Sequence record: PP968062.1
Direction: 5' to 3' (one strand)
Origin: Pseudomonas phage HPP-Temi
Length of the DNA: 64,000 bases
Shown here: in pieces, positions 27,088-62,205 of the stretch
How positions within the stretch are numbered: position 1 is the first letter of the stretch
Layout of the letters: the number at the start of each line of letters is the position of its first letter
The notes under the pieces: model-generated
What the model saw: the letters and a program-made list of their open reading frames with translations, nothing else
What the model was told of the DNA's origin: nothing
The model's database searches: none
Position numbers and translations under genes: made by a program

Positions 27088-27122
27088 AATGATTATATAG
27101 ATGTGAAAATTATTTTTTTGTA
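27088..27122 (-). promoter_or_regulatory. early-type promoter motif (minus: AAAAAAATAATTTTCACATCTATATAATCAT)
   Basis: Member of 7-copy motif family; 33 nt upstream of beta gene ATG with AGGAG SD. Confidence 0.6.
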
Positions 27123-27132
27123 GGATTCCTCT

Positions 27133-27495
27133 ATGGCATTTACAATTATGGAACAGACTGACAATGGCGGAGCATCGATGTTTTATGATCCTGCCTTCCG
27201 TTTGATTGTCGAAACCCACATTAACATTCTTAGGAATATCAATGCCGTTAGAGTTGAGATCCCTAATGAACTGTACTGGCAGTACGAAGGGAACTTTTAC
27301 GGTTATCTAACTGAAATCGGCGTTGAGCCTGAACTCCATTGGATCTATTTGCGTGTTAATGGAATGGAGAATCCGAATCAGTTCGCTGCTGATGTACGTG
27401 ATCCTCTGGATAAAGCTTACAACAACGTTCTGATAAAACCGTCGAATAATGAGATTGGTGCGCTGCAACAGTTCTACACTAGTCGAAAATTTTAA
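27133..27495 (+). CDS. hypothetical protein (120 aa)
   Basis: ORF track; ends at hairpin 27503-27526. Confidence 0.5.
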   Translation: MAFTIMEQTDNGGASMFYDPAFRLIVETHINILRNINAVRVEIPNELYWQYEGNFYGYLTEIGVEPELHWIYLRVNGMENPNQFAADVRDPLDKAYNNVLIKPSNNEIGALQQFYTSRKF

Positions 27496-27502
27496 AGCTA
27501 AG

Positions 27503-27532
27503 GCAGGGGACCCGAAGGCCCCCTGCTTTATG
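27503..27532. terminator. hairpin GCAGGGG...CCCCTGC + CTTTATG
   Basis: 7-bp stem with CCGAAGG centre between convergent genes. Confidence 0.6.
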
Positions 27533-27537
27533 CCGTC

Positions 27538-28878
27538 TTACACCAGACCCAGACCGTTAGTCTGGCGCATGCCAGCTACAGCTTGCAGGTACGGGTTAGC
27601 CGGTTGGCCATTGCCCATCATCATACCCTGAGGCTGACCACCCATCCATGAAGGGATAGGAGCTGCGGCCTGGATACCACCTTGGTTCATGTTGCCCATG
27701 CCGTTGTTCATCATCATGGGTTGCATCATGGTACCACCCATGTTGTTCATGGGCATCATGCCATTACCTTGCATCATCATGCCGTTGCCCATGGGCATCT
27801 GCATCATCATTCCGGGTTGCTGCATCATCTGCGGTTGCGGATTCTGAGCTGCCATGAATTCACTCATGGAGACAGTATCTTTCTCTACAGGTTTGCTAAC
27901 AGTAGCGGTCGGACGAGTCATCTGCGGGGTAGCAGTTTGAGCAGGAGTAACGGTTGCTACTTGTTTCGATTGTTGAGCTTGACCAACTTCAGCAGTCTCC
28001 GGAGTATCTTCATCACGACCACCCAGGTTGCCATTCAGCGGGGGAATCAGGTTGTAGATCTTCGGGAACTCGTCGATCAGATCCAGATCAAAGACCGGGA
28101 TCGGACTAACAGGAATCTGAAGCGGGATTGCGTAACGATGAATCAGCTGGTTCAGCATCACGATTACTTTGTGATACGCGGTCAGCAGACTGGTGTAATA
28201 CGGAGCTACACGGCTGGTAGTACCAAACGCGTATTCTTCCGGATTGTCACCAAACGGAACGACCAGTTTGAACAACGCGGTCAGAACCTTACGCTGCTTC
28301 TTGGCCATCTTGACACCGAGCACATCATCACTTTCGGCTTGCAGATCTTCCAGGATCGGGAAACGCACAATTGCCATGCGGTTCACTTTCTTACCGTCGT
28401 AGGTACCACCGTTCTTCAGGTATACGGCAACCAGACGATTTTTCTTGGTAGCTGCGGGCATCAGCTTCTCGAACAGACCGACAGTTGCTTTGTCAGCATC
28501 TGCCAGTTTCTTCAGGAAGTCAGTTGCATCCGGCGGAAGGTCCTTGTGGGACGACTTATCCGCTGCGATGGTCAGCAGTTGTTCGGCCATTTTGTGGACG
28601 ACGAAACTGATGTGTGCTTTTGCTGCACGTTGCAGGTACTGGATCACCGGGGAAGTACCCCGGCGACTCAGCGCTTCACTCAGCGGGTGGAACGGCTGGA
28701 AGTCTTCACCGAAGCCCTTACGTAGGAACTTGTCGGTCGGGATAACCAGACGCTTACCGTCTACGGTCGAAGGAGAAGCAGTGCCTACCGGATTGCGGAG
28801 GCTGATGTAACCTTCTTCATCGAACTCGCAGGCGAACGAGGGGAGTACAGATTTATACGAGTCCAAGATCAACGACAT
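27538..28878 (-). CDS. hypothetical protein with Met/Gln/Gly-rich low-complexity C-terminal tail
   Basis: C-terminal ~110 aa: QPQMMQQPGMMMQMPMGNGMMMQGNGMMPMNNMGG... Confidence 0.75.
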   Translation of the reverse strand: MSLILDSYKSVLPSFACEFDEEGYISLRNPVGTASPSTVDGKRLVIPTDKFLRKGFGEDFQPFHPLSEALSRRGTSPVIQYLQRAAKAHISFVVHKMAEQLLTIAADKSSHKDLPPDATDFLKKLADADKATVGLFEKLMPAATKKNRLVAVYLKNGGTYDGKKVNRMAIVRFPILEDLQAESDDVLGVKMAKKQRKVLTALFKLVVPFGDNPEEYAFGTTSRVAPYYTSLLTAYHKVIVMLNQLIHRYAIPLQIPVSPIPVFDLDLIDEFPKIYNLIPPLNGNLGGRDEDTPETAEVGQAQQSKQVATVTPAQTATPQMTRPTATVSKPVEKDTVSMSEFMAAQNPQPQMMQQPGMMMQMPMGNGMMMQGNGMMPMNNMGGTMMQPMMMNNGMGNMNQGGIQAAAPIPSWMGGQPQGMMMGNGQPANPYLQAVAGMRQTNGLGLV

Positions 28879-30487: not shown

Positions 30488-30507
30488 GTATTTTACCTCT
30501 TGAATTT

Positions 30508-32085
30508 TTACTGGTTGATCTGAGCGAGGTGGAGAACCACTTCGGTGATCGTATGCTTGATGTTCGGAGGCGGAATCAGAACGTTGTTCTGTGCGATCTG
30601 ACCAGAGAGTTTAAACAGCTCACTCGGGCCATGATAGATCCACGTGGAAGAACGGATAGACTGGTTGCAGTTGTTAACCGCAATACCGGCCATGTTGTCA
30701 GGCTTCGGAATCTCCCCGGATTGAGGAACCTTAGCAAGCTTCATGTGCGGGTACAGTTCATCCAGTTGCGCCTTGTACTTCTGTGCGATCCGCGATCCGC
30801 TTCGAGTATTGCTAAGTTGATTCGTCGAGCCATGTTCACCATGGTAAACAGGTTCAACTTGCATGAAGACTGCTACATCCAGGTAACCCCAGTGCCACAG
30901 CAAAGCCTGTGTGGTTGCCAGCAAGGTGTTCACCGGCAGCTTGGAGATATGGTAGAATGCACGTGCAGGGAAAGCCTTAGCCATTACCCATTGAGCAAGC
31001 AATACCTGGTGAGGACGGATCTCGTAGTTCGCGACCTGATTCACGCAGCTAATGCACTTCCGCAGTTTCTCCAGATCAATGGTCGGATCTACTGTAGTTG
31101 CCAGCAGTTCGTAATCCATTGCATCGATGTTGTAAGCTTCGATATCACCAGGGCTCACTCGACCTTTAGTCTTGTGGGCCTCGATGAACGAGGTCTTATC
31201 TTCATCATCACCACCACCGCCTTCCGGGCGCTTTTCGTTAACCCGATCAGTTGGGCTACGTTCAGCAGGGTTCAGGTTGCTACGCACGTAACGGAACGTG
31301 TTAGCTACGATGGAGTGGGACATTGGATCGTTCAATGGAACAATAGTCAGTCGACGTACCAGAACCTTCGAGCGAAGGTGTACCGGAATCTCAACCGAAC
31401 TCATACCCCGCCAGAGACTACCCAATGTGGTCGGCTCATCTTCAACGCAGAATTTGACGTACCCTTCCAGTTTGTCGAATGCGACATCTACGTCTTCACC
31501 CACTTCGTCTTTTTCGAGCAACGGCCAGTTAGCAATCTCACAACGGCTGATAAGACCAACGACTTCGTTTTCCTTATGGAGTTCTTGATCCGTACCCGAA
31601 TCAATGTATTCACCCCAGATCGGAACCATCGGACGCAGAGCCAATGCAACTGTTGCCAGGTTGATGTAATCATGTTGCAGGTAAGTCTGCTCCCGCTTGG
31701 TATAGCGGGATTCATCAGTGATCGTTTTCTGGATCTCTGGTGGAATATGCAGGTTACCGATAGTCAGCAACCAACGACGGAGTTTGTTCATCGGCAATGC
31801 CGAGTACAGTTCGTGGATGTAATGAATCAGCGTACTGGAGATGTGCGCAGGTTCGAAGTCCATCTTGAACAGATCGTTGATTTTGACATAGCTGTTCCAA
31901 ATACGATCTTGGTCAGCTTCATCACAACCTTCAAGGTAATCGTTGAATTCCTTGAACACCCGAGTAGGGTCGTTGAGTTTTACTTTGCTATAAGCTCGTG
32001 TACTCCACTTGATTTCGTTTCCTTTATGGCTCGTAGTCACTTCTACGAAACCGTTCCCTTGTACTCCAGTTACGTCAATACGCAT
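30508..32085 (-). CDS. hypothetical protein (525 aa)
   Basis: Long ORF; SD TGAGGTATAA; early-type promoter 32 nt upstream. Confidence 0.75.
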   Translation of the reverse strand: MRIDVTGVQGNGFVEVTTSHKGNEIKWSTRAYSKVKLNDPTRVFKEFNDYLEGCDEADQDRIWNSYVKINDLFKMDFEPAHISSTLIHYIHELYSALPMNKLRRWLLTIGNLHIPPEIQKTITDESRYTKREQTYLQHDYINLATVALALRPMVPIWGEYIDSGTDQELHKENEVVGLISRCEIANWPLLEKDEVGEDVDVAFDKLEGYVKFCVEDEPTTLGSLWRGMSSVEIPVHLRSKVLVRRLTIVPLNDPMSHSIVANTFRYVRSNLNPAERSPTDRVNEKRPEGGGGDDEDKTSFIEAHKTKGRVSPGDIEAYNIDAMDYELLATTVDPTIDLEKLRKCISCVNQVANYEIRPHQVLLAQWVMAKAFPARAFYHISKLPVNTLLATTQALLWHWGYLDVAVFMQVEPVYHGEHGSTNQLSNTRSGSRIAQKYKAQLDELYPHMKLAKVPQSGEIPKPDNMAGIAVNNCNQSIRSSTWIYHGPSELFKLSGQIAQNNVLIPPPNIKHTITEVVLHLAQINQ

Positions 32086-32112
32086 TTATACCTCATTGAT
32101 GCTGGTGATACA

Positions 32113-32148
32113 CAACTGTAATATAGATCTGAGATATTTTTTAATGTC
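32113..32148 (-). promoter_or_regulatory. early-type promoter motif (minus: AAAAATATCTCAGATCTATATTACAGTTG)
   Basis: Contains TATATTAC, the reported phiKZ early promoter core; upstream of 30508..32085. Confidence 0.65.
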
Positions 32149-33875: not shown

Positions 33876-35021
33876 TTAAGTCCTAACGAACGGGATAAGC
33901 CTTTCAAGGCACCGTATTTGCACTGTTGGATCACTGGTCACTTTCTCAATTTCATCTTTGAGTAGACCCGTGATTGTTTCGGGAGTAATAGCGATAAACT
34001 TCGACATGTCAAATTCTTTCAGACTTGTCGCTACACTATTCTTTTTCTTAGTAGCTTTTTCCACCAAGACCGACCATTCGTAGTTAGGATACTCAATACG
34101 GAATGTCTCGATGTCACCATTAGCTACGTCCATCGGATCACATCGTAGACGAATAGCTGAGTACTTCGGAAGATCCGCTAAGGTTTCTTTAACTTTGTTC
34201 AAGAGTTGCTTGGTATCGAAACCATGCACTTCAAGAGTTACGTACTTCTTAGCATTTTTGTTCTGTATAAAGGTAGCAGTGAAATCACCGTTATCACGAA
34301 CCACAAAGTGGAACAAACCTTTGTCGATCTCATCTCCATGGCAGATTCGATCGAAAGAACCAGCAGCGTAGATCCGTTCATGGATAGTCATGTTGTGTAC
34401 ATGACCAATCAGGATCTGATGTTTTACCAGTTTGAGATATTCTGCTTCATCGTGAGTTGGTTCTTCCACGATAGAAGGAAGCTGATAGCTAAATGCCCCG
34501 TGCATAATAGCAAAGTCAACTTGATCAATTCCTAGTGCAGCCATCTGTTCTTTCACTTGAGAAAGCGTTACAGCGGTAGACGGATGCCACTTGTCTGGGA
34601 CATAAAGGAAATGAGCATCGAGCTTCTCATTGTACTCAATCGACAGAGTCTTCGAGTAATGGAGGTCGACTGGAATATCTACGTTGATTTTCTGTTCAAC
34701 GAAAAACTGGGTTTGTTCACGGTCATGGCTTGGTGTACCTTCAACAATTCGTAACATCACATTGTTAGCAGCGCAACGCATCATGAACGTAGTGGCCCAG
34801 CGGTTGATCTGGTGCACTGACTCGTCGCCATAGTTCAACTGGCGATCAAACAGGTCACCAGTAATGATGACCATGTCAAGATCCTTTAACATCTTATCTG
34901 TGATTACCTTATCGAGGTTCAACAGAATGTGAGATGTAGGAGTTGTCCGATGGCCTAGGTGTACGTCACCTAGGCTTATATAACGGAAGGTGCCGGGGAA
35001 CTTAGTCTTATCAGTCTTCAT
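33876..35021 (-). CDS. calcineurin-like metallophosphoesterase (SbcD/Mre11-like nuclease or phosphatase)
   Basis: Motifs LGDVHLG, ITGDLFDR, GTPSHD, GHVHN; ORF track 33876..35126, likely start at MKTDKTKF. Confidence 0.65.
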   Translation of the reverse strand: MKTDKTKFPGTFRYISLGDVHLGHRTTPTSHILLNLDKVITDKMLKDLDMVIITGDLFDRQLNYGDESVHQINRWATTFMMRCAANNVMLRIVEGTPSHDREQTQFFVEQKINVDIPVDLHYSKTLSIEYNEKLDAHFLYVPDKWHPSTAVTLSQVKEQMAALGIDQVDFAIMHGAFSYQLPSIVEEPTHDEAEYLKLVKHQILIGHVHNMTIHERIYAAGSFDRICHGDEIDKGLFHFVVRDNGDFTATFIQNKNAKKYVTLEVHGFDTKQLLNKVKETLADLPKYSAIRLRCDPMDVANGDIETFRIEYPNYEWSVLVEKATKKKNSVATSLKEFDMSKFIAITPETITGLLKDEIEKVTSDPTVQIRCLERLIPFVRT

Positions 35022-37793: not shown

Positions 37794-39260
37794 TTAAGCT
37801 GCTTTCGCCAACCATTCCTCCAAAGACGGAAGATAGTCTTCGTGAGCATAGTTGATGATCGTTTCTACAACCGGACCTTGGAGTTCCAGGTTACCAGAGA
37901 TCTCGTGTGGATCATCCGGACTCAGTACCCAAGTATGCGGTGCGATTCGTTCAGTTGCATCAGCCAGATAGTTATCGGGCATCAGCGTCAAGTTCAGCTG
38001 GTCACCATCGAAGTCGGCGTTAGGTGCTTTCAGGCACAGTACCGACATGCTGATGGAGTTATCTCGAATGTCATTCTTAATAACGGTGATGAAGAACTGC
38101 TGTGTCGAACCACGTTGCAGAGTCGGGTTACGGTGGAACACACACGGAAGACCTTTGTACTTCGATTCTGCAATGATCTCTTTAAACAGCTGATCCAGGA
38201 CTTCGTTGTACTTCAGGACGTTCTCGTAGATGAACGAGTTCGCTTGGCGAGTCGTCATACGGAACTTGCGTTTCAGTTTGTTGATCAGGTGATACTTCAA
38301 CAACTGACAGCCGACGCCCCACGGAATGTGAAGTTCATCGTAATCATGCGGGTCACTAATGGAAGTAATTACCGCACGAGCAGTCAGGTTAAGACGACCA
38401 CCCAATACGTGCCTACGAACCAGACCAGGCTTTTGCGCGATCCGTTGTTTGTCGTAGTTCTCATGGAAGATAGCCAGAAGCTTCAGTGCACGAGCTACAC
38501 GGTTTTGTACAGTGATTGGTTTCAGCGGGATTGCCGAACTGCCGATACTACTAATAGTCAGTACCGCATCGATTGCTGCGCCGATCGGCTTATCGATGTA
38601 AACACCCGAGGTCGTAGACTCTACAACGAAACAGAGTTTAGTTGGGATCGGAATGTTCTTCGGGAACAGGTGTTCTTTGTTTTGGTTAACGAATGCAGCC
38701 ATCTCACCTTTGTTGGTGTTGATGATACTGCTATCGAGCAAGAACTGGAAGATCGTATCGAAGTTCTGAACGAAGTTGTTCAATCCACGTGGGAACTGGC
38801 GAGCCAGCAACTTGTCGAGTTTCCGTTTGGTTTCTTTCGAACTGATCGTATCGTAATCAAACTGATACTGCGTGTTGGTCAGATACTCCAGGAAGTCGAA
38901 CTCTTTCATCGACATGTATCCTGAAAGCATAATCCACAACTCGGGACTCACCAGACGATCCACCCCTTCCGGTGCCCGAATCCACATCGAAGGAACGATG
39001 GGTCGGTTGCTCGTGCTTACTACTGGTGTACCACAGTTATCACAGATTACCCCGAGCTTGTATGCTTCCGTGATATGTTCACAGTCACACGATGCCGAGT
39101 TCTCGATCGCATCTGCATCCTGATAATGGGAGAACAGATAACGTTGGAATTCCTCCTTTTGTTCAGCATTGCTGGTATTGAAGTCGTTTGCGAATACTAC
39201 TTTACCTCTTTGGTTAGCGAGCATTTCGTCATGATTGACAACCTGAGCATATAGACCCAT
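37794..39260 (-). CDS. multisubunit RNAP beta' subunit, N-terminal segment
   Basis: Catalytic motif CLKAPNADFDGDQLNLTLMP (NADFDGD) near C-terminus; Zn-finger-like Cys cluster near N-terminus. Confidence 0.85.
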   Translation of the reverse strand: MGLYAQVVNHDEMLANQRGKVVFANDFNTSNAEQKEEFQRYLFSHYQDADAIENSASCDCEHITEAYKLGVICDNCGTPVVSTSNRPIVPSMWIRAPEGVDRLVSPELWIMLSGYMSMKEFDFLEYLTNTQYQFDYDTISSKETKRKLDKLLARQFPRGLNNFVQNFDTIFQFLLDSSIINTNKGEMAAFVNQNKEHLFPKNIPIPTKLCFVVESTTSGVYIDKPIGAAIDAVLTISSIGSSAIPLKPITVQNRVARALKLLAIFHENYDKQRIAQKPGLVRRHVLGGRLNLTARAVITSISDPHDYDELHIPWGVGCQLLKYHLINKLKRKFRMTTRQANSFIYENVLKYNEVLDQLFKEIIAESKYKGLPCVFHRNPTLQRGSTQQFFITVIKNDIRDNSISMSVLCLKAPNADFDGDQLNLTLMPDNYLADATERIAPHTWVLSPDDPHEISGNLELQGPVVETIINYAHEDYLPSLEEWLAKAA

Positions 39261-39282
39261 ACCTACTTCCTATTGTGTTGCG

Positions 39283-39321
39283 ACAAAAAAAGGAGATAGA
39301 AGCGGCTCCCGAAGGAGCCGC
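39283..39321 (-). terminator. intrinsic terminator: hairpin GCGGCTCC-cgaa-GGAGCCGC followed on minus RNA by UCUAUCUCCUUUUUUUG
   Basis: 8-bp stem + T7 tract, downstream of the 621-aa gene, upstream of beta' N gene. Confidence 0.75.
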
Positions 39322-39653
39322 CTTATCTACTATCGATGGACCACCAACGGAGCCTGGCACGATCCTAGCATCGTCTACAAAGCTTAACCTCCGCTCTTCT
39401 CTGTAGCACTTTGACACTAGAACCTTTTACCATCCATCGTTGTTTTGATCACACGTTGCCTTTTGAGCAACTCCTTTCGGTTAAGTGATCGATCACGCCC
39501 GTGTAGCGAGAGGTCGACCTAGACTTTACGTCCACTAGACGATTACTTCGCGGAACCTACTCCTAACCGTTATCACCGAAGTGAACCAGGGTCGCAGTAT
39601 TTGAATCGGGATGCCAGCCTTCTGACACCCCTATCAACCGGGGGAGTTGTTTC

Positions 39654-41519
39654 TTAGTACAGAGTACCAACCGAACCAGCCATGTTCAGCTGGTAGCCAC
39701 CACCAACGCCCATGCCGTTGACAACCTGAGCGGTAGAACCGACAGCGAAGTCTTGAATCATGGTGTTGCCGGTGAAGCGCTGAGCACCGAATACCTGAGC
39801 AACGTTGTCCATTGCTACGGTCAGACCGGCAGCAGCGATCGCCTTATCCAGACCCTCGATGAATTTCGGGTTGAAGATACCGCGATGTGCACGGGTGGTG
39901 TAAGTTACAGCGCCCAGGAACGCACGGTCGTAGTTCTTGGATTGCTTGTTGCGCAGTTCCGGATGAATGTTCGGGTTGCACTGAGTACCGTACCAGGACA
40001 TCCACTCTTGCTGGTTGCCTTCTGCGGCGTTCAGAGCACCGAGAGCGTCGAGGTCACGACGGTCACGTTTCTCATCGCCATCCCAGTAGTAGCCCTTGTT
40101 GATTTCGGTACCAGTCGATGCAATGATCGGCTGGGTGTTGAAATCGAAGAAGCGCTCGAAGCCGCCACCAACCAGGTTCTGTACAGCGCGAATGATCGCG
40201 GCAGTAGCTTTCTGTTGGTTCGGGCCACCCATGGCATCCAGGAAGATCACGTCCAGAGCCGCGTTGTCGCCCATGCGGTCCAGGTCGATCAGGAAGGACG
40301 GGTTCGGACGAACCATGCTCAGCATCAGATCAGCGAAGTTCTGATCGGTGAAGGTGTCGGACTTGGTATCGATCTTCTTGTTCAGGTTGGACAGCCAACC
40401 CAGAGCACCGATGTCACCGAGGTCCTTCACTTTACCTACCTGAGGCAGGAACTTACGAGCCCAAGCCTGACCAGCAGTTACGCGGAAGGCGTTCGACAGA
40501 GCGAAGAGATACAGTTCCAGAGTGTTTGCCTTGATCCAGTTCGCCTGACGAACGTCAGTGATCAGGATCGCCGGGGAGAACGGCGGCAGCGGTTGGGTCT
40601 GTTGACCGAACATCTGGGCTTGCGGAGTCGGAGTGTACTCCAGGGTTACCTGTACCGACACCTGGTTCAGCATGGTGTCTGCTTCGTAGAACTCGTTCTC
40701 TTGCTGACCTTGCTTCTTGGTGCGGTTCAGGCTAACGAGGATGTCCGACTTGATCGGGTTACCAACGCTGTCCATTACCGGACGACCGGAGAAGTCCATC
40801 TTGGCAGCCAGGGTTTCGTCTTGGCCACGCAGCATGGCGATCTGGAACGGAGTCTCGCCAGCTTTCTTCGCCAGAACGTCATCACACAGGTTGACGGAGC
40901 GAATCAGGATGTCTTTCAGCAGGACTTCATCTTTCAGATCGAATTCAGCCGGGATCGGCAGCGGACCGGCCGGGTGTACTTCAGCCTTCGGACGACCGGT
41001 GGTCTGACGAACGAAGTCGCAGATGCGGTTCCAGTACTGAACGGTGAAGACGTCTTGCACTTCAACGTCAACGTCGAAGCGATCGTGGCTCATGCCGTTT
41101 TGAATGGTCACTTGGCGAGGAGCCAGGGTGATTGCCGAGTTCGGCATGATCAGCGGACGAACAACGATGATGCCGTTGCCACCAGCTGCATGCTTGACGA
41201 TCAGCAGAGCGGAGTAGCCAACGCGGTTAGCGTCGCGGTCGAAACGCAGGATCTGGAAATCGTTTTCCAGGTCTTGATGGTCGATGGCATCTTTGCCAAC
41301 GCGGGTCATTACTTGCAGAGCTTCGCTCGCACGGGCGTCGCCGCCATCAGTACGACCGGAGCGTTTGAACATGTTCGGCAGGCCGGAGATACCGCCTTGC
41401 AGAGTTTGAGGAGCGGATTGTTGCATGCGAGGAGCTTCCTGTTGTGCGCGCGGAGCAGCTTGAGCCGGACCGTTGTTGGCTTGAGCTTGGGTGTTTTGAG
41501 CGTCGGTATCACGAATCAT
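39654..41519 (-). CDS. candidate chimallin (phage nucleus shell protein) / major early protein
   Basis: 621 aa; disordered Gln/Ala-rich N-terminus; immediately upstream of nvRNAP beta' N gene as phiKZ gp54-gp55; early-type promoter; host-like GC-rich codon usage. Identity not confirmed by motif. Confidence 0.5.
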   Translation of the reverse strand: MIRDTDAQNTQAQANNGPAQAAPRAQQEAPRMQQSAPQTLQGGISGLPNMFKRSGRTDGGDARASEALQVMTRVGKDAIDHQDLENDFQILRFDRDANRVGYSALLIVKHAAGGNGIIVVRPLIMPNSAITLAPRQVTIQNGMSHDRFDVDVEVQDVFTVQYWNRICDFVRQTTGRPKAEVHPAGPLPIPAEFDLKDEVLLKDILIRSVNLCDDVLAKKAGETPFQIAMLRGQDETLAAKMDFSGRPVMDSVGNPIKSDILVSLNRTKKQGQQENEFYEADTMLNQVSVQVTLEYTPTPQAQMFGQQTQPLPPFSPAILITDVRQANWIKANTLELYLFALSNAFRVTAGQAWARKFLPQVGKVKDLGDIGALGWLSNLNKKIDTKSDTFTDQNFADLMLSMVRPNPSFLIDLDRMGDNAALDVIFLDAMGGPNQQKATAAIIRAVQNLVGGGFERFFDFNTQPIIASTGTEINKGYYWDGDEKRDRRDLDALGALNAAEGNQQEWMSWYGTQCNPNIHPELRNKQSKNYDRAFLGAVTYTTRAHRGIFNPKFIEGLDKAIAAAGLTVAMDNVAQVFGAQRFTGNTMIQDFAVGSTAQVVNGMGVGGGYQLNMAGSVGTLY

Positions 41520-41586
41520 GATTTGTTCCTATGTTTGTAACGTTTCTTGATCAAGAATGAGATCCAACAGTGTATTGGATTCAAAA

Positions 41587-41617
41587 CTGTTATATAGATC
41601 TCAGATTTTTTTTAATG
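41587..41617 (-). promoter_or_regulatory. early-type promoter motif (minus: CATTAAAAAAAATCTGAGATCTATATAACAG)
   Basis: 68 nt upstream of ATG 41519. Confidence 0.6.
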
Positions 41618-41808
41618 CATTATAGACCGGAGGACCCGCTATAAAAGCAAGGTCATTTGAGGACAGTCAGTCTTCACATACTGTATTACATATTTGTTTC
41701 CTTAAGATTCAAACTCAGTATGCTGAGTACTGGGGCATAGCTCAAATAGCAGGTCAGGACCTCACGGTCATTTCCTGTATTAAATAACTAGCCCCAGTAT
41801 TTCTTTTC

Positions 41809-43402: not shown

Positions 43403-43436
43403 TCAAAACTATGATATAGATTTGAAATTATTTCTA
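43403..43436 (-). promoter_or_regulatory. early-type promoter motif (minus: ...AAATAATTTCAAATCTATATCATAGTTTTG)
   Basis: 41 nt upstream of ATG 43368; also 14 nt upstream of plus gene 43450. Confidence 0.55.
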
Positions 43437-43449
43437 ATGGACGAAAACC

Positions 43450-45003: not shown

Positions 45004-45030
45004 CGACATAAAGCCCAGCCGAAGCTGGGC
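45004..45030 (-). terminator. hairpin GCCCAGC-cgaa-GCTGGGC; minus strand reads hairpin-CTTTATGTCGGAGTTAACATG
   Basis: Terminator of 45038..46207 fused to TATGTCG motif and SD of next gene. Confidence 0.7.
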
Positions 45031-46436: not shown

Positions 46437-48617
46437 TTAGTAGAAGTCGGAGATCAAACGGGTGTTACCTTTATCGATCAAGAAGATACCCAGGGATTCA
46501 AAAATCAAGTAGAACACACCCATGGTGTTGGAGATGATCGTGCGAACATCAGCTACACGGGTAATCTCATCGGGAATACCGCGGTTTTCCACAACTGTCA
46601 TCGGAACGTGGAAGTTGGCGATACCAGTCTTGTTGTTTTCCATTGCCCAACGTTTAAGGCGCATGGCAAGACCTTTATCTTCGATAGTCTCAACCCACTC
46701 ATTAAAGCGAGTCTTGTTATCGGTTGTTACAGAGATCTTGACGAAGCTGTACGGAGGTTCTTCGATTTCACCAAACGACGGGCTGCAAACTTCTTTCCAG
46801 AAAGTGTGCTTAGCATAGGTGGCGTTATCTTCAGACTTGTACGCATCGATCTTCTTGCACTTACCGGTGGTGAGGTATTCAGCTTTACCAGAACGAACCG
46901 AAGCGATGATGTCACGTTCCAGGTCTGCTACTTCTTTCAGCATTGCGGGAAGATCAAGTGGCTCTTCTGCTTTAATGGACTTAATGATGTCATCCATCAT
47001 CCGCTTAGCAGTCTTGTTGATCTTCGGTGGAACTTTAGAATCTCGCAGACCTACACCTTTAACTTCCATACGAGCTTTAGCGAACATTACGCCCTCCTGC
47101 GCGTCCTGAGACGCGTAATAGTGTTTTGAACGTGTGGTCAAGGAAAGTACAGCGAAGTAGTATTCGTTCTTCATAGCCAACAAACGGAGCTTCTCTTTCG
47201 ATACGCCCATGTTAGCCGACTGAATGGCGAGGATGTGTGCAACCACACAGGACACCAGGAACACCAATGCAAACACCAGTCGCTTAGCTTCAGCGGTAAA
47301 GGTGATCTTACCAAAGAACTCTTCTACCCAGTACTGCATGGTAAACATCGTGGAGTCAGTGTCGGAGATGACAGCTGCGCGGCGGTAAGCAGTTGGGAAA
47401 GCATGAATGCTAGAAGGTACGTTCTTGGTCAGAAGGAGAGCATCAATCAAACGCTTGTATTTCCACAGCGTATCAGAGATGTTCTTACCTGTTGCATAAA
47501 TCGTGTCGAATACTTCAGGGGATTCTTTGCTCAGCTTATCATAGTTCCGACCTTTAACCAGATCGAAGCAAATGAAGTTAGCCAGGAGTTGCAAGTCACC
47601 ATCGTAAGTGTTGTAAACTTCTTTGGTAACCTTCTGTTCGTCAGTACCTAGTTGAGCAAGCTCTGTCAGGAAACTACGAATCAAAACTTTGTTGTGTTTG
47701 TAGACATGATACAGATCGCCAACATACATAACAGCCGCACGCTGCAATGGAGTGAAACCAGTAACCAACATCCGAATCTGTTCAGTGTAGTCACGATTCT
47801 GCCAGTAGTGCGCTGTGGAATACAGAACCATTTCAATTACTTCATCCGGAGTCGGGTAATGCATATTGAAATGATCAATGCAATCTTTCAACTTCTTCAT
47901 GTCGGTGTTGTTAGCAATCGACAGAAGGTTGGCTTTGGTAATCTCCGGACTATAGTAGTGGCGATTACCAGTGATGAACTTCTCGTTATTCGCGTTAGCA
48001 TACGAGGTTGCAGTACGACAAGTAGACGTCAAGCTGGAGTGAGTCGACTTGTAATACAGAATCGTTGCCGCGCTTACGGTTGCTCCACTGTAGGAGTTAT
48101 TGTTAATTTTGAAGTTTTCTTGTTCGCCTTTGCGAACCTGTGCGAGTTCAGCTGCTTCCGGGGTACCTTCACCCTCAAGACGCATTTGTTCTTTCTTAAC
48201 ACGTTTACGGTTTGCTACACCTTCAGCGATATACTGAGAGTGGGTAGACTGGCGCTGAGATTCCGGAAGATACACGGTCATACTCGGCGACAGCAAAAGA
48301 TTCTGTTTTTCTACACGGCCTAAGAAACCCATGAAGGTGGTTTCTTTCAAACTACGATCGCCTTGAGGATTCTTGTCTAATATCAAGGTCTTTGGATTGT
48401 TCAGGGCAAACTGACCCTGAGGGCGAGACTGTTCCTTCACAAACTCCAAGCAGGTTTCAAATGGATCCCCCGTCATCGCGGAGATGTACAGAGCTTGATC
48501 GTTAAGATAACCTTCGATGATGTTCAGGTCACGGGTGTAATCTTCAACCGGCAACAAGAACGGGTTAGGAGTGCTGATCTGGTCCATATTTCCTCTCTTA
48601 AAATTTAATCTTTTCAA
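46437..48617 (-). CDS. family B DNA polymerase, C-terminal polymerase part (split polymerase)
   Basis: Motif B-like KINNNSYSG and motif C AVISDTDSTMF (DTDS); 726 aa. Confidence 0.65.
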   Translation of the reverse strand: MKRLNFKRGNMDQISTPNPFLLPVEDYTRDLNIIEGYLNDQALYISAMTGDPFETCLEFVKEQSRPQGQFALNNPKTLILDKNPQGDRSLKETTFMGFLGRVEKQNLLLSPSMTVYLPESQRQSTHSQYIAEGVANRKRVKKEQMRLEGEGTPEAAELAQVRKGEQENFKINNNSYSGATVSAATILYYKSTHSSLTSTCRTATSYANANNEKFITGNRHYYSPEITKANLLSIANNTDMKKLKDCIDHFNMHYPTPDEVIEMVLYSTAHYWQNRDYTEQIRMLVTGFTPLQRAAVMYVGDLYHVYKHNKVLIRSFLTELAQLGTDEQKVTKEVYNTYDGDLQLLANFICFDLVKGRNYDKLSKESPEVFDTIYATGKNISDTLWKYKRLIDALLLTKNVPSSIHAFPTAYRRAAVISDTDSTMFTMQYWVEEFFGKITFTAEAKRLVFALVFLVSCVVAHILAIQSANMGVSKEKLRLLAMKNEYYFAVLSLTTRSKHYYASQDAQEGVMFAKARMEVKGVGLRDSKVPPKINKTAKRMMDDIIKSIKAEEPLDLPAMLKEVADLERDIIASVRSGKAEYLTTGKCKKIDAYKSEDNATYAKHTFWKEVCSPSFGEIEEPPYSFVKISVTTDNKTRFNEWVETIEDKGLAMRLKRWAMENNKTGIANFHVPMTVVENRGIPDEITRVADVRTIISNTMGVFYLIFESLGIFLIDKGNTRLISDFY

Positions 48618-48734: not shown

Positions 48735-48767
48735 CGACATAATGCCCTCCCGAAGGAGGGCGATATG
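48735..48767 (-). terminator. hairpin GCCCTCC-cgaa-GGAGGGC; minus strand reads hairpin-ATTATGTCGTTG
   Basis: 7-bp stem 3' of 48768..49175. Confidence 0.7.
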
Positions 48768-53430: not shown

Positions 53431-53451
53431 TTTAGTATTCCGGAAATCACT

Positions 53452-53486
53452 CAGAACTATGATATAGATTTGAAATCTTTTAAAAT
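53452..53486 (-). promoter_or_regulatory. early-type promoter motif (minus: ...AAGATTTCAAATCTATATCATAGTTCTG)
   Basis: Near-identical to copy at 43403-43436. Confidence 0.55.
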
Positions 53487-53577
53487 CGCCACAGAACCCC
53501 GTTGTATATGATACCCCTCCTGGGTATTATCTCCATTAGGGTTTATTCACTGGTGAGCTTCCTAGGGGCGTTAAAAC

Positions 53578-55326: not shown

Positions 55327-55341
55327 AAAAAATAAAGCATA

Positions 55342-55369
55342 GCCCCTACCCGAAGGTAGGGGCTTTATG
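55342..55369. terminator. hairpin GCCCCTACC-cgaa-GGTAGGGGC + CTTTATG; A8 tract upstream
   Basis: Exact copy of stem-loop at 44542; between convergent genes. Confidence 0.75.
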
Positions 55370-55839: not shown

Positions 55840-55922
55840 GTCGTGATACCTTTAGGGTTTATTATCACGTTTGTAATATAGCCTTTAAATTGGTTTGAAT
55901 GTAAAAAGAAAAACGGAATAAA

Positions 55923-58552: not shown

Positions 58553-58570
58553 GGGGAGCCGAAGCTCCCC
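58553..58570 (-). terminator. hairpin GGGGAGC-cgaa-GCTCCCC
   Basis: 7-bp stem 3' of PhuZ gene. Confidence 0.6.
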
Positions 58571-58576
58571 AGTTAT

Positions 58577-59524
58577 TTACAGAACGAAACCGTCATCAGA
58601 ACGGTTGTCATCGATATCAACGATTGCTGCACGCTGGGTATAGCGAACCTGCTGACGATGGTGTTCTTGTTTCTGATCCAGCAGCGATTTGATGCGTTCC
58701 TGAATACCTACCGAATTGATTACGAAGTGCAGCTGTTCAGACAGAGCATCTTCATCTTCCGGAGAGGCGATACCAACAGTGCGAACGAACGGGTTACCAT
58801 AGGCAACTTCTTTCGCGGCATCGGTGTACAGGGAAGCAACAGAGATCATCTCGGGAACTGCGGCAGCTTCCTGACGAGAAGTGTGGATGTGCAGTTCACA
58901 CAGTTGCGGCTGGATGTAGCTGTGCTTGTTGGTGAAACGAGCCCAGTGATCCAGGTCCAGAACATCCAGACGAGCGTGCTTCTGGTTGGACAGGTAGATC
59001 AGCGAGTGTACAGCGAACACTGCATCTTTGTCGATCTCGGAGTATGCGACGCCATTGACGTTCTCGATCGGACAGATGCTGATCGGAGTATTGGTTGCAG
59101 CAGCGATACCTTCCAGGGTCTTCATGGTGTCGATGTCGTTCTGAAGAACTTCAGTCGATTCAATACCACTGATGACCACAGCTACAACAGTCTCACCAGC
59201 TTTTGCCAGAGCCGATACCAGCAGCGGACCGAGAACCGAACCAGAACCACCACCCATGGAGAACAGAACAACGTTGAAGTCGCCTGCCGGGTAGCGTTCG
59301 AGGAAAGGAGCGATCTGATGACGAACCTTCGGCATGATGAATGCACGATTCTTACCTGCACCACGGGTACCCTCTGTCAGGTAGACGCGTTCAAGATCGT
59401 GATCAGCAGTCACGTTCTTATCGCAGGTATCGATGTACACCAGATCCGGATGCCATTGAAGGTTGACGCCAACGTTCAGACCAGCACCACCACAGCAGTA
59501 TACACGAGTTTTAACTTTAGTCAT
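58577..59524 (-). CDS. phuZ: PhuZ phage tubulin (TubZ/FtsZ superfamily)
   Basis: GGAGLNVG (tubulin GGGTGxG-like), DTCDKNV, GTRGAG, GGGSGSVLGPL, NDIDTMKTLE, CELHI, HFVINSVG and acidic C-terminal tail IDDNRSDDGFVL match PhuZ of 201phi2-1/phiKZ. Confidence 0.9.
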   Translation of the reverse strand: MTKVKTRVYCCGGAGLNVGVNLQWHPDLVYIDTCDKNVTADHDLERVYLTEGTRGAGKNRAFIMPKVRHQIAPFLERYPAGDFNVVLFSMGGGSGSVLGPLLVSALAKAGETVVAVVISGIESTEVLQNDIDTMKTLEGIAAATNTPISICPIENVNGVAYSEIDKDAVFAVHSLIYLSNQKHARLDVLDLDHWARFTNKHSYIQPQLCELHIHTSRQEAAAVPEMISVASLYTDAAKEVAYGNPFVRTVGIASPEDEDALSEQLHFVINSVGIQERIKSLLDQKQEHHRQQVRYTQRAAIVDIDDNRSDDGFVL

Positions 59525-59542
59525 TTCGATGTTTCCTCTTGA

Positions 59543-59845
59543 TTAACCTTCTACGATTGAAATCAGTTCGCCACGCTCAGCTTCGTTGAGCTGGGCAAAC
59601 AGGTATTCACCTACTTCAGCAGAGAGGGCTCCGAGTTGCCATTGAGCTTTCTCTTCATCGGTAGCTTGAGCAAACACTTCCGGATGGATTTCTTCCAAGA
59701 ATACCAGAGCGAGTTTATTGAACTGGCTCAGGGTATTGATGTTGAACTGGATAATGAACTTGTCGACTGCGCGCTTATCATCAAAGCAAACAGTCTTCGT
59801 GGTCATTCCAAAGTGAATGCTACCAAACTCTTCAATTTCACACAT
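59543..59845 (-). CDS. hypothetical protein (100 aa)
   Basis: ORF track. Confidence 0.55.
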   Translation of the reverse strand: MCEIEEFGSIHFGMTTKTVCFDDKRAVDKFIIQFNINTLSQFNKLALVFLEEIHPEVFAQATDEEKAQWQLGALSAEVGEYLFAQLNEAERGELISIVEG

Positions 59846-59868
59846 AGTAACCGTAACTCCGGTATTTG

Positions 59869-60633
59869 TTAGCTAAGAACTAACTCTTGGTCTTTGAACG
59901 AATTGAGATAGACTTTAACCTGAACATCGACTCCAAGATAGTAACCTACCATCAAGGTTACCGTACAGTTATCGTGAACCATGGTGTTAACAATGGATAC
60001 ATTGTCCAGATTAGCAAAATTCTTGATTGTCGGCGTTATCCGATAAATCTTCGGAATCGACTCGAAGTCAAACTCGTGTCTTTCGCTAACCTTCAGCGTA
60101 TTCAGATCCACGAACGTGATTGTCTTTGGACGACAATATTCATCAACTTCGACATGTTTAATCGCAGATGGCGTATTCTCAGGAACTAGAAGCTGATATA
60201 CACGATCATTACTGTAGAAAGTAATACGACCCATCTCTTGGTTCAGCCATTCAGTCGGCTTATAGAAACTAACTGAGTGCACCGCGGTATCAAAGCTCAT
60301 GGAGCTCTGTACATCGAAGAATACGTAGCCATCGGAGATCATGTGCTCTACCAGTTTCTGATAGTGCTCACCCAGACGGTGTAAAGTTTGGCGAGTAGCA
60401 ATAGAACCGAAGAACGCACCCAAGTTCTGGCGGGTATGCTCCAGGTTAGATTCACTCGGAGCGTAAGTCTCCTCGAACTCTTTCTTGGTAACGTTCCATT
60501 CGGAGATCTTCAGGAAGATGTCATTGGTAACAGGATGAACTGCACCAAAGGTGATTTCATCTACGTTTTCAATAACTAGGAAGTTTTTAAAGATCTCTTT
60601 GATCTTGGGGAACTCGGTTCCAATGGACTTCAT
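59869..60633 (-). CDS. hypothetical protein (254 aa)
   Basis: ORF track; GAGGAAAAGAA SD. Confidence 0.65.
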   Translation of the reverse strand: MKSIGTEFPKIKEIFKNFLVIENVDEITFGAVHPVTNDIFLKISEWNVTKKEFEETYAPSESNLEHTRQNLGAFFGSIATRQTLHRLGEHYQKLVEHMISDGYVFFDVQSSMSFDTAVHSVSFYKPTEWLNQEMGRITFYSNDRVYQLLVPENTPSAIKHVEVDEYCRPKTITFVDLNTLKVSERHEFDFESIPKIYRITPTIKNFANLDNVSIVNTMVHDNCTVTLMVGYYLGVDVQVKVYLNSFKDQELVLS

Positions 60634-60768
60634 TTCTTTTCCTCTTTGGGGTGTACCAGGAAGGTAAAGCCCGATCCATCATTGTGGATCACCAGTTCCA
60701 GAGTACCACCCGTGTTGATGGCATGTTGCATGAGACGGTTGTAATTGATTGCGCTCATTTGTATTTCC

Positions 60769-60990
60769 TCAGATGATGATTTCTGAAACGGGTACCACGC
60801 GAATATTCAATACAGTCGGAGATTGATGCTCGCGACTAACCGTTGCCATTATCACAGCGGGATAAGAGCAACGAATTGTGTTGGGGGAGATCATGTCCAC
60901 TTTGAATTTCTGGTACATGTGTTTGATAAGTTCATGGACATCGTCATCGTTTTTTACAAGGAACAAAGAATCGGGGATCAATGTTTTCAT
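60769..60990 (-). CDS. hypothetical small protein (73 aa)
   Basis: ORF track; early-type promoter 37 nt upstream. Confidence 0.45.
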   Translation of the reverse strand: MKTLIPDSLFLVKNDDDVHELIKHMYQKFKVDMISPNTIRCSYPAVIMATVSREHQSPTVLNIRVVPVSEIII

Positions 60991-61023
60991 TTTTGGTTTT
61001 CCAAGTTTTGGGATAGTATTCCT

Positions 61024-61054
61024 CTAGGTAATATAGATCTAAGATTATTTTTAC
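61024..61054 (-). promoter_or_regulatory. early-type promoter motif (minus: CCAATAGTAAAAATAATCTTAGATCTATATTACCTAG)
   Basis: Contains TATATTAC core. Confidence 0.6.
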
Positions 61055-61059
61055 TATTG

Positions 61060-61320
61060 GGTGGATGGGGCTTTGTAGCCCCACGACACCCTCTTCCAAG
61101 TTTTGCGACATAGTCGTTTTTTGTTTCCCTACCCCTGACTAAAGAATAAGGAAATTATATATGGGACCCCCCCAAAGGGTCCCCCCCACATATAATTACT
61201 ATTTATATAAAAATTCTTTTAGAAGAAAAAGCTTTGAATAATGAAAATACTCTTTATTAAAGAATTCTATTCTTCTACTACAAATTACTTATGCGCGGCC
61301 CGGCCCCGCGAAAAAGAAAA
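61060..61320. other. AT-rich, structured non-coding segment with C7 tracts and GC-clamp hairpins
   Basis: No ORF; two-tier hairpin GGGTG-GGGGCT-ttgt-AGCCCC-CACCC, GGGACCCCCCC-aaa-GGGTCCCCCCC, GCGCGGCCCGGCCCCGCG, about 80 percent AT between. Confidence 0.5.
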
Positions 61321-61331
61321 AAAGAAAGCAA

Positions 61332-61358
61332 CCCTCTCCCGAAGGAGAGGGCTTTATG
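61332..61358 (-). terminator. hairpin CCCTCTCC-cgaa-GGAGAGGG + CTTTATG; U-rich tail on minus RNA
   Basis: Same stem as 19697-19718. Confidence 0.75.
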
Positions 61359-61360
61359 CC

Positions 61361-62146
61361 TTAACGGTTACTTAGCTTGACCATGGAAACAAATTTATCA
61401 TCCCAGGTCAGTTTGTCCATGTCGAAGTAACGTTGAGGGTACATGGTGAAACCAACAGCCGTACCATGGTAGATGCTATCTGGATCATTCACAGCAATCA
61501 CAGTAGAACGAGTGTACTCACCTGCATAATTTTTCATTATGTGGACGAAGGACTTAATGTTCTTATTGCCTGTCAACCAAGTCATGCGACGCTGAGCTAC
61601 TTCAGCGAAACGAAGAACTTCAGAACGTACCCACTGAGGATAATGGGTAACGTTGTTGTTCTCTAGAGGAACGACACGATCGACATCTTCCTCAAGATCA
61701 CCGAAACTAAAACCGCTTACCAAACCAACGATCTGGAAAAAGACTGGCTTCTCTGCCATATCGGTGATGGTTTGATACATGCCGTTACTAGTACAGGCGA
61801 AGCCACGATCTGCAAACTCATCCATTATGTCGGTGTAAGCTCGCTGAATACGAGGTTCGATCCAGCAGCAACGGTCGACGTAATGTTTAATGAGAAGACC
61901 CTTGACGTGCTCTTTGTAACTTTCTTCATCGAACGAAGAGTTCAGGCCACGCACGTTCAGATAAGAACGATCACGTCCTTCAAACGTAAATGTAGGCTTA
62001 CTCCAGCCACTGTGGCTTTCAACGAACACACGGATGGTGTAGCTGTCCAGCGCGCCATTTCCGGTCACGTTGTACCAAATTGTGTCGAGGTGGTTCTTGG
62101 TTAAGCCGAGGTCGAGAGCATTGAAACTGAAATCGATGTCAGACAT
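61361..62146 (-). CDS. hypothetical protein (261 aa)
   Basis: ORF track; early-type promoter 34 nt upstream. Confidence 0.7.
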   Translation of the reverse strand: MSDIDFSFNALDLGLTKNHLDTIWYNVTGNGALDSYTIRVFVESHSGWSKPTFTFEGRDRSYLNVRGLNSSFDEESYKEHVKGLLIKHYVDRCCWIEPRIQRAYTDIMDEFADRGFACTSNGMYQTITDMAEKPVFFQIVGLVSGFSFGDLEEDVDRVVPLENNNVTHYPQWVRSEVLRFAEVAQRRMTWLTGNKNIKSFVHIMKNYAGEYTRSTVIAVNDPDSIYHGTAVGFTMYPQRYFDMDKLTWDDKFVSMVKLSNR

Positions 62147-62177
62147 TGTAGACTCCTGTTAGGGGATGGAATATCAC

Positions 62178-62205
62178 TACTGTAATGTAGATCTAAAAAC
62201 AAATA
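62178..62205 (-). promoter_or_regulatory. early-type promoter motif (minus: GTTTTTAGATCTACATTACAGTAGTG)
   Basis: Variant TACATTAC core. Confidence 0.5.

Follow-up and report, generated by a model that had tools for sequence, protein, structure and literature searches.

Nine predicted early promoters in a 64,000-nucleotide stretch of a phiKZ-like Pseudomonas phage

An element conserved over about 38 nt is present in nine copies, all on the minus strand, in a 64,000-nucleotide stretch of Pseudomonas phage HPP-Temi (PP968062.1), here termed the window. The nine elements are very probably early promoters, read by a multisubunit RNA polymerase carried inside the virion and injected with the DNA. 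This reading is based on nine noncoding sites that are co-oriented with the following gene, on their ranks in matrix and leave-one-out scoring, on a G seven bases past the core, on orthologous positions and on a published consensus. Promoters of this kind are already well described in related phages, and the finding is sound but ordinary. Minor additions are two conserved sub-types and a core, TATATCAT, that is kept at orthologous genes across genera.

By sequence comparison, the window derives from a phiPA3/PS119XW-like, nucleus-forming jumbo phage, one of the giant phiKZ-like Pseudomonas phages; its DNA is collinear with that of Pseudomonas phages PA1C and PS119XW, at 88% identity. The window encodes chimallin, PhuZ and subunits of RNA polymerase. 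Neither the exact chimallin nor the exact PhuZ protein occurs in a 15-billion-protein collection, and no exact match to the chimallin promoter 33-mer was found in the IMG/VR viral contigs. The minus-strand gene at 14702-16045 (phrog_2962) is a homologue of phiKZ gp080, with 69% identity to it, and gp080 is a virion RNA polymerase subunit in phiKZ (PMC8244752). Its product is presumed to be a subunit of the cognate enzyme for the early motif. The remaining virion RNA polymerase subunits are outside the window. The gene map used was curated by synteny; the automatic map had picked several open reading frames on the wrong strand.

The nine copies and the genes that follow them

A first-pass annotation of the window described a seven-copy family of early promoters for the virion RNA polymerase. 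All seven copies were found on the minus strand, none more than a few bases from its stated position, but the family has nine members, and the two that were missed, at 20672-20709 and 55865-55902, both carry an exact TATATTAC core. Copies equally frequent inside open reading frames would have spoken against the promoter reading; all nine cores are noncoding, in the 7.5% of the window that the curated map leaves to noncoding DNA, and co-oriented with the next gene. The exact TATATTAC core is present at four of the nine sites, and the other five differ from it by one to three substitutions. A shared core had been assigned to the original seven, where it is exact in two (32118 and 61028) and replaced in the rest by TATATAAC, TATATCAT (twice), TATATAAT and TACATTAC. 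The 27-nt consensus proposed for these copies fits three of them with 0-2 mismatches, but the other four differ from it at 5-8 positions. Each of the seven does precede a minus-strand ATG, at a measured 26-67 nt from the 3' end of the 27-mer rather than 28-68 nt.

Predicted leaders, counted from a G taken as +1, are 22-36 nt long at eight sites and 63 nt for chimallin. The copy at 20672..20709 (sub-type B; core TATATTAC at 20687-20680) has a predicted start at G 20673 and a 29-nt leader to ATG 20644 of a 66-amino-acid open reading frame; orthologous copies are found in PS119XW, upstream of gp076 in phiKZ and upstream of gp133 in 201phi2-1. Sub-type A copy 27084..27121 has the weakest core, TATATAAT at 27099-27092. 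Its predicted start, G 27085, gives a 27-nt leader before the gene for the beta subunit of the non-virion RNA polymerase (24947-27058; ATG 27058), and the beta' gene (22947-24920) and a helicase gene (21355-22890) come next. Its orthologues are at phiKZ 63041, with core TATATCAT, and 201phi2-1 L005 41681. At 32110..32147 (sub-type A; exact TATATTAC at 32125-32118), the predicted start G 32111 and a 26-nt leader precede ATG 32085 of a phiKZ gp068 homologue, a fifth non-virion RNA polymerase subunit with 58% protein identity to phiKZ gp068. This copy corresponds to phiKZ 57962 and to the 201phi2-1 gp124 promoter.

The chimallin (nuclear shell) gene (39654-41519, minus strand) is preceded by the sub-type A copy at 41581..41618, which has core TATATAAC at 41596-41589 and a predicted start at G 41582, 63 nt before ATG 41519; in a four-phage alignment it aligns with the phiKZ gp054 promoter. 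No consensus RNA structure was predicted for the chimallin leader from three phages. Copy 43403..43440 (sub-type A; core TATATCAT at 43418-43411) is inside an 81-nt divergent gap, opposite a late-type plus-strand gene; its predicted start, G 43404, and 36-nt leader precede ATG 43368 of a 519-amino-acid protein without a family match, and the orthologue at phiKZ 44900, after gp052, also has a TATATCAT core. The same core is found at 53466-53459 in the sub-type A copy at 53451..53488 and in both its orthologues, phiKZ 35854 and 201phi2-1 L005 8060. Here the predicted start G 53452 and a 22-nt leader to ATG 53430 head a long series of minus-strand genes, one of them coding for a DNA polymerase (46437-48587).

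The second copy missed at first, 55865..55902 (sub-type B; exact TATATTAC at 55880-55873), has a predicted start at G 55866 and a 27-nt leader to ATG 55839 of a 74-amino-acid open reading frame, and the phiKZ promoter at 34562, upstream of PHIKZ041.3, is near-identical. Copy 61020..61057 (sub-type A; exact TATATTAC at 61035-61028; predicted start G 61021) has a 31-nt leader to ATG 60990, the first gene of a run whose last gene is PhuZ (58577-59524), with a terminator hairpin at 58553-58570 at its end. Another terminator hairpin, at 62215-62232, is immediately upstream of copy 62174..62211 (sub-type A; core TACATTAC at 62189-62182), whose predicted start G 62175 and 29-nt leader precede ATG 62146 of a 261-amino-acid protein.

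The genes after the motif, among them chimallin, the PhuZ operon and the genes for non-virion RNA polymerase subunits, are of the early type that such promoters would be expected to serve. In the proposed scheme the virion polymerase would enter with the DNA and transcribe from the nine motif sites, and the predicted transcripts would provide functions required before the phage nucleus forms. Besides many small proteins, the predicted early products are beta, beta', the gp68 homologue, chimallin and those of the PhuZ operon.

Motif statistics, architecture and relatives

The family greatly exceeds chance expectation. With the 27-mer consensus and up to three mismatches allowed, three matches were found in the window and none in 100 shuffles. 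All nine sites have leave-one-out scores above the best score of all 40 random sequences. A matrix built from 17 phiKZ sites only returns the nine sites as the nine best matches in the window, all on the minus strand, with copy 55865..55902 highest at 46.1 bits; seven of the nine are above the best score of 200 random sequences. Sites 27085 (5.9) and 53452 (6.0) are within the chance-maximum range of this matrix, and so both rest on leave-one-out scoring and orthology. The scan with this matrix detected no copy on the plus strand or before virion genes 12469-16916. A 7-mer scan of noncoding DNA without prior assumptions ranked ATCTATA/TCTATAT/TATATTA second only to terminator loops. Footprinting against PS119XW gave 93.7% identity for the motif and 92.5% for flanking noncoding DNA, with no footprint; it is uninformative because the two phages are too similar.

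The conserved element consists of an AT-rich block near -30 (an A-tract or TTCAAAC), a block near -20 (ATCTNAGATC, ATTTCAAATC or TTTAAAGSC) and, at -14 to -7, the core TATATTAC or a near variant, followed by six unconserved bases and the G taken as +1. A G is found exactly 7 nt past the 8-mer core at all nine window sites and at 25 of 25 sites in PS119XW, and it is preceded by T at -1 at eight of the nine window sites. In sub-type A an A-tract and WTYTNAGATC precede a variable core, which is followed by nnnnnT-G; in sub-type B, RYATTYAAAC and TTTAAAS precede an almost invariant TATATTAC, which is followed by AAnnGT-GA.

The phiKZ early promoter consensus given in the first-pass annotation is correct: the predicted phiKZ promoter is listed as TATATTAC, and that of 201phi2-1 as TTAWTAVAA_HYWTTTRARR_BTATATTACDWHDGTG (PMC7058600 Table 2). 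As sequences, the latter and the window motif are essentially the same. AT-rich blocks near -20 and -30 have been described for early promoters of relatives (PMC11512511, PMC8244752). As cited in later papers, 28-32 early promoters are present per phiKZ genome (Ceyssens 2014 via PMC8244752, PMC10914365, PMC7058600). By dRNA-seq the primary transcript start of phiKZ gp054 was assigned to the early motif (PMC8244752), and ONT-cappable-seq revealed just six early promoters in 201phi2-1, one of them upstream of gp124 (PMC11512511). Starts are placed 6 nt downstream of the consensus in phiKZ and phiR1-37, a spacing that for these relatives comes from statements in the text of PMC5312081 and with which the position of the G at the window sites agrees.

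In phiKZ, TATATTAC with the same flanks is found upstream of coding-strand genes, including chimallin gp054. With a matrix derived from the window, 150 kb of phiKZ yielded 26 sites, every one on the coding strand, while 50 kb of 201phi2-1 yielded 9 and 167 kb of PS119XW yielded 25; from the PS119XW result, about 25-30 sites would be expected in the complete genome of the present phage. Matrices transfer both ways between the window and phiKZ. Promoter positions orthologous to those in phiKZ, 201phi2-1 and PS119XW are at chimallin, gp68, non-virion beta, gp76, gp41.3 and after gp42 and gp52. The assignment to early promoters of the virion RNA polymerase is supported at the sequence level by consensus, two-way matrix transfer, orthologous positions and early-type genes.

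The window sites resemble phiKZ early promoters in the 8-mer core, the G seven bases on, the -20 and -30 elements and the presence of both sub-types, and they precede orthologues of gp054, gp068, gp071, gp076, gp041.3, gp036 and gp053 or come after that of gp042. They differ in the -20 element, which is mostly ATCTNAGATC or ATTTCAAATC in the window but TTTRAGATY in phiKZ, in more numerous core variants and in a genome context of 46% rather than 37% GC. With 201phi2-1 they share blocks near -10, -20 and -30, GTG at the predicted start, sites at chimallin, gp124 (the gp68 homologue), gp128/129, gp74, gp99 and gp133, and a chimallin leader with GAATC at +1 and a CTTGATCAAG palindrome; at about -31 the window has an A-tract where 201phi2-1 has TAG. 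The early promoter of AR9 is AAATATATATTAT-(6N)-G (PMC5312081). As at the window sites with their predicted starts, the AR9 and phiR1-37 promoters combine an extended AT-rich core with six spacer bases and a G as start, and a virion multisubunit polymerase is presumed to read them, but these are distant phages with uracil-containing DNA, a different core and none of the -20 and -30 elements of the window. The literature on relatives describes promoters that the virion polymerase recognizes, initiation six bases past the consensus and independence of the host polymerase; by analogy, we infer early, virion-polymerase-dependent initiation in the present phage. No demonstration of in vitro binding of the motif by the virion polymerase was found in the literature cited.

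Alternative readings

It is improbable that the motif is instead a middle or late promoter of the non-virion RNA polymerase, or that some copies are, with 27085 the main candidate. Transcription from a middle-type promoter was observed for the non-virion beta and beta' genes of 201phi2-1, including gp129, the orthologue of the gene driven from 27085; an early-type motif is present at gp129, which is not among the active promoters reported, and this counts against the early reading there (PMC11512511). In addition, phiKZ gp054 has an extra secondary start of middle type (PMC8244752). Published middle promoters, on the other hand, have an A-rich stretch with TACT near -22, and late ones have TATG with the G at +1 (PMC7598289, PMC8244752); neither TACT at -22 nor TATG at -3 to +1 was seen at any of the nine sites. 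Virion and late genes lack the motif upstream on either strand, including the virion RNA polymerase subunit gene at 14702-16045, and a AAATACTG element, which resembles the middle motif more closely, occurs elsewhere in the window.

Some other role for the element is very improbable, be it an operator for a dimeric regulator, a hairpin promoter like those of coliphage N4 or a small mobile repeat. In five of the window copies the segment from -24 to -16 forms a perfect 9-nt dyad, ATCTNAGAT or ATTTCAAAT; in this lineage the -20 element of sub-type A has these two dyad-symmetric forms, which interconvert as a unit, and one orthologous site has swapped form between window 61021 and PS119XW. By our own count, paired dyad positions in PS119XW co-vary (C/G 6, T/A 5, T/G 1, C/A 0). 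This symmetry would suit an operator, but as a general feature the dyad was rejected: phiKZ and 201phi2-1 have mostly TTTGAGAT, which is not palindromic, and the dyad is absent from sub-type B copies. A regulator site could also be present alongside promoter function without replacing it. The copies are strictly oriented, keep a fixed distance to the gene and occupy orthologous positions across genera, which fits a promoter better than a mobile repeat.

Early transcription of coliphage N4 is started by an injected, single-subunit virion polymerase at promoters that adopt a hairpin form, a stable DNA hairpin with a 5-7 bp stem and a 3-nt loop. Initiation of early transcription by an injected virion polymerase is the likeness proposed here; the N4 enzyme differs in being single-subunit, and no hairpin was predicted at the window sites. 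Single-stranded DNA folding gave 0 to -3.7 kcal/mol. No hairpin was common to the sites, and eight of the nine, with z-scores near zero, were no different from shuffles. The hairpin promoter was rejected on these grounds.

A sigma-70 promoter consists of -35 TTGACA and -10 TATAAT, 16-18 nt apart. That TATATTAC is the -10 box of such a promoter, with the early genes read by the Pseudomonas RNA polymerase, is extremely improbable: the core is TATAAT-like and centred near -10, and weak 9-of-12 pattern matches overlap two of the nine sites (43456-43427 and 55889-55861), but in both the -10 hexamer is out of register with the conserved core, there is no conserved -35 hexamer, the ~38-nt conservation and -20 and -30 elements are unlike sigma-70 promoters, sigma-70-like matches are depleted in the region (11 versus 27.5, sd 5.2, in shuffles), and phiKZ development is host-polymerase-independent and rifampicin-insensitive (PMC5312081, PMC7598289).

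Sub-types and use of the promoter map

Read as early promoters, the nine copies divide into two distinct sub-types, with differences that are linked over ~38 nt and kept in at least three genera. Non-consensus cores, TATATCAT among them, are conserved at orthologous genes in phiKZ, 201phi2-1 and the present phage. Taken together, the sub-types, such cores and the interconverting dyads might point to a built-in programme of promoter strength or sub-temporal order (immediate-early versus delayed-early), or to a second recognition determinant or factor; this suggestion is tentative and rather doubtful. Neither idea was found described in the literature cited. The sub-types and conserved 'weak' cores are small leads on how early expression may be graded by an injected polymerase, and the general understanding of these phages is unchanged.

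The copies provide a map of nine predicted early starts and operon heads, taking in chimallin, three non-virion RNA polymerase subunits and the PhuZ operon, for a phiPA3-like phage without a published start-site map. For PhiPA3, RNA-seq analysis of this kind was stated not to exist in a 2023 preprint (bioRxiv 10.1101/2023.09.22.559000). Such a map could be of use in annotation, in the design of knock-downs and reporters and in the engineering of early-expressed cargo, for which the phiKZ consensus early promoter has already been used (PMC12676376). Sequence variants named as designs are a core mutant, TATATTAC to TGTGTTAC, and, as swaps of the -20 element, ATCTCAGAT, ATTTCAAAT and ATCTCAAAT.

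Nine predicted early promoters

A family of minus-strand motifs, described in the first-pass annotation as seven early promoters with a phiKZ core, is confirmed and now numbers nine sites. The predicted start G lies at 20673, 27085, 32111, 41582, 43404, 53452, 55866, 61021 and 62175. All seven original copies are present on that strand where the first-pass annotation placed them; two more, overlooked at first, were found by matrix scan at 20672-20709 and 55865-55902, directly 5′ of small minus-strand ORFs, and both carry an exact TATATTAC core. The 27-mer consensus first proposed holds for three copies at ≤3 mismatches (0 in 100 shuffles), but the other four differ from it at 5-8 positions, mostly in the A-tract. 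Similarly, the TATATTAC core is exact in two of the original seven and variant in five (TATATAAC once, TATATCAT twice, TATATAAT once, TACATTAC once).

A matrix made solely from phiKZ, in which 150 kb yielded 17 TATATTAC sites in promoter-like context, returned exactly these nine sites as its top nine matches in the window, all on the minus strand. Seven scored above the best of 200 random sequences, and the sites at 27085 and 53452, with scores of ∼6, fall inside the chance range. With leave-one-out scoring in the window, all nine exceed all 40 null maxima. Every core is in noncoding DNA, which forms 7.5% of the window on a gene map curated by synteny, and every site points at the next gene; the motif is present in only 9 of ∼35 gaps of at least 40 nt. 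In a prior-free scan for 7-mers enriched in noncoding DNA, the promoter core (ATCTATA, TCTATAT, TATATTA) ranked second, behind only terminator loops (CCTTCGG). The motif is therefore not equally frequent inside ORFs, which the first-pass annotation had named as grounds for refutation.

The first-pass annotation was correct in equating the core with the phiKZ early consensus: TATATTAC is the phiKZ promoter among the predicted promoters of a published Table 2, which also contains TTAWTAVAA_HYWTTTRARR_BTATATTACDWHDGTG for 201phi2-1 and related OBP, EL and N1M2 motifs (PMC7058600). All jumbo phages encoding RNA polymerases have a motif of this type that can be found ahead of their presumed early operons, and transcript profiling, wherever it was done, showed the predicted motif to be the early promoter consensus (PMC7598289). 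The early motif was found at 32 starts by dRNA-seq of phiKZ, among them the gp054 primary start (PMC8244752), and ONT-cappable-seq confirmed early motifs in both phiKZ and 201phi2-1, one of them upstream of gp124 (PMC10914365, PMC11512511). Homology to these experimentally mapped promoters of two related genera supports the reading of the nine sites as predicted early (virion RNA polymerase) promoters, one more example of a well-known type. After injection, the virion polymerase reads the early genes within the early compartment; later it is kept out of the phage nucleus (PMC10612078, PMC12571901). For PhiPA3 there was no comparable RNA-seq analysis as of a 2023 preprint (10.1101/2023.09.22.559000). 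As an engineering part, the consensus early promoter of phiKZ is already in use (PMC12676376).

Conservation in related phages

The window is 88% identical and collinear over a 14-kb stretch with Pseudomonas phages PA1C, PS119XW (genus Pawinskivirus) and relatives, with weaker matches to 201phi2-1 and phiKZ-group phages. Genes named from the PS119XW annotation and profile searches include those for chimallin (39654-41519, minus strand), PhuZ (58577-59524, minus strand), non-virion RNA polymerase subunits (24947-27058, 22947-24920 and 37794-39260) and a DNA polymerase (46437-48587), a phiKZ gp068 homologue (30508-32085, 58% identity) and a virion RNA polymerase subunit gene (14702-16045, 69% identical to phiKZ gp080). 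This homology and gene set identify the source as a phiPA3-like nucleus-forming jumbo phage. Searches for identical sequences gave no match, either for its chimallin and PhuZ proteins in a collection of 15 billion proteins or for the chimallin promoter 33-mer in the IMG/VR viral contigs.

PS119XW has a conserved counterpart of each of the nine sites at the orthologous position. The reverse scan, with a matrix from the nine window sites, covered 50 kb of 201phi2-1, where it detected 9 sites, and 150 kb of phiKZ, where it detected 26, all of them on the coding strand. Orthologous sites precede the genes for chimallin (phiKZ gp054, 201phi2-1 gp105), gp068 (phiKZ gp068, 201phi2-1 gp124), the non-virion beta subunit (phiKZ gp071, 201phi2-1 gp128/129) and phiKZ gp076/201phi2-1 gp133, as well as the gp041.3 and gp036 orthologues and the genes after the oppositely oriented gp042 and gp052 homologues. 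In a four-phage alignment upstream of chimallin, conservation is focused on the promoter (∼-33 to +5), the ribosome-binding site and, within the leader, a CTTGATCAAG palindrome; the window and PS119XW alone gave no footprint because the pair is too similar.

Promoter layout, sub-types and alternative readings

Aligned on the core, which spans -14 to -7, the sites display an AT-rich block at ∼-30 and a further block at ∼-20, and downstream of the core six variable bases and a G. The G follows the six-base spacer in 9/9 window sites (preceded by T in 8/9) and in 25/25 PS119XW sites. The AR9 consensus is AAATATATATTAT-(6N)-G, and phiKZ and phiR1-37 transcripts start 6 nt downstream of the consensus (PMC5312081). 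Counted from this G as +1, the chimallin leader is 63 nt long and the others 22-36 nt, compared with a typical 31-40 nt reported for phiKZ (PMC8244752). A GC-rich TTCG-loop terminator lies just 5′ of several promoters, e.g., 62215-62232 ahead of the 62175 start, and the layout is thus terminator, promoter, leader, gene.

Two sub-types, A and B, differ at linked positions over the whole element (A/B counts: window 7/2, PS119XW 16/9, phiKZ 12/10). The TATATCAT core is kept at orthologous genes in phiKZ, 201phi2-1 and the window lineage, which suggests that this departure from consensus is maintained and not drift. In the window lineage, the sub-type A -20 block has two forms, ATCTNAGAT and ATTTCAAAT, each a perfect 9-nt dyad. 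The orthologous promoter at 61021 changed form by three coordinated substitutions (window 61040-61048, minus strand, vs. PS119XW record 21329-21337). In PS119XW, 12 sub-type A sites have C or T at one of the paired positions and G or A at the other; their pairs are C/G 6, T/A 5, T/G 1 and C/A 0 (one-sided Fisher p ∼0.008 by our own calculation, the sites not being independent). The dyad may represent a separate operator added to the promoter, although sub-type B lacks it, as do most sites in phiKZ and 201phi2-1.

Were the sites middle or late promoters, the published middle (A-rich plus TACT) or late (TATG) motifs would be expected, and both are absent from all nine. A middle-type promoter does drive 201phi2-1 gp129/130, the only type its transcriptome shows there, early promoters having been sought farther off (PMC11512511). 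Because of this, the predicted early promoter at 27085, the weakest match, might not be the sole promoter of its operon. A perfect early-type motif (TTTGAGATTTATATTAC...GTG) is found upstream of gp128/gp129 at 201phi2-1 record positions 71681-71718 (41681-41718 in the stretch used here).

A sigma-70 promoter was rejected because the sites lack a -35 element, sigma-70-like patterns are depleted and the related phages are independent of host polymerase. Sigma-70-like matches at window 19000-64000 numbered 11 vs. 27.5 (sd 5.2) in shuffled sequence, 23 vs. 29.7 and 4 vs. 8.6, in keeping with avoidance of host transcription by the phage. A hairpin promoter or structural element was rejected by folding.

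Neighboring elements

The long chimallin leader (window 41582-41520, minus strand; 45582-45647 in L002, apparently the phiKZ stretch; 23538-23605 in L005, the 201phi2-1 stretch) is conserved over three genera, with GAATC at +1 and an invariant self-complementary CTTGATCAAG ∼30 nt ahead of the start codon. No consensus RNA fold was predicted for this leader; CTTGATCAAG may be a regulatory site on DNA or mRNA.

GC-rich hairpins with TTCG-type tetraloops occur at 17 window sites, all on the minus strand (e.g., 62215-62232, 58553-58570, 55341-55364, 48744-48761, 45013-45030, 19697-19718 and 13167-13186), and match the phiKZ terminator motif ...YTTATKYYGT (PMC10914365). TATG, often as TTATGTCG, follows within 12 nt in 8/17 (expected, 2.4% per 12-mer). 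Because the late promoters of the non-virion polymerase likewise have TATG as their consensus, some terminators might, speculatively, double as late starts.

An AAATACTG-N3-4-CTAGT-(T)ATTTAATACAGG element is found twice on the minus strand, at ∼41802-41770, with 190 nt between it and the early promoter of chimallin downstream, and at ∼63858-63830, upstream of the ORF at 63404-63829. It fits the middle promoters published for phiKZ, which combine an A-rich stretch with TACT, and phiKZ gp054 has a secondary start of middle-promoter type (PMC8244752).

Two noncoding spacers are unusually long, and neither matched an Rfam family. That at 39261-39653 (393 nt), between chimallin and a gp055-like polymerase subunit gene, has a terminator hairpin at 39302-39321 and resembles a 395-nt gap in phiKZ. 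The other, 60991-61360 (370 nt), is very AT-rich with a G7/C-rich hairpin, TGGGGGGGACCCTTTGGGGGGGTCCCA.

Elsewhere in the window, a split DNA polymerase gene (8401-12066, plus strand) has its first exon at 8401-10113, matching phrog_3011 positions 3-496, and its second, matching positions 497-570, inside 11713-12066. The exons are separated by an HNH endonuclease ORF (10142-11497) and a group I intron (11446-11781; Rfam RF00028, 59.2 bits), and GC content dips to 41% at this locus.
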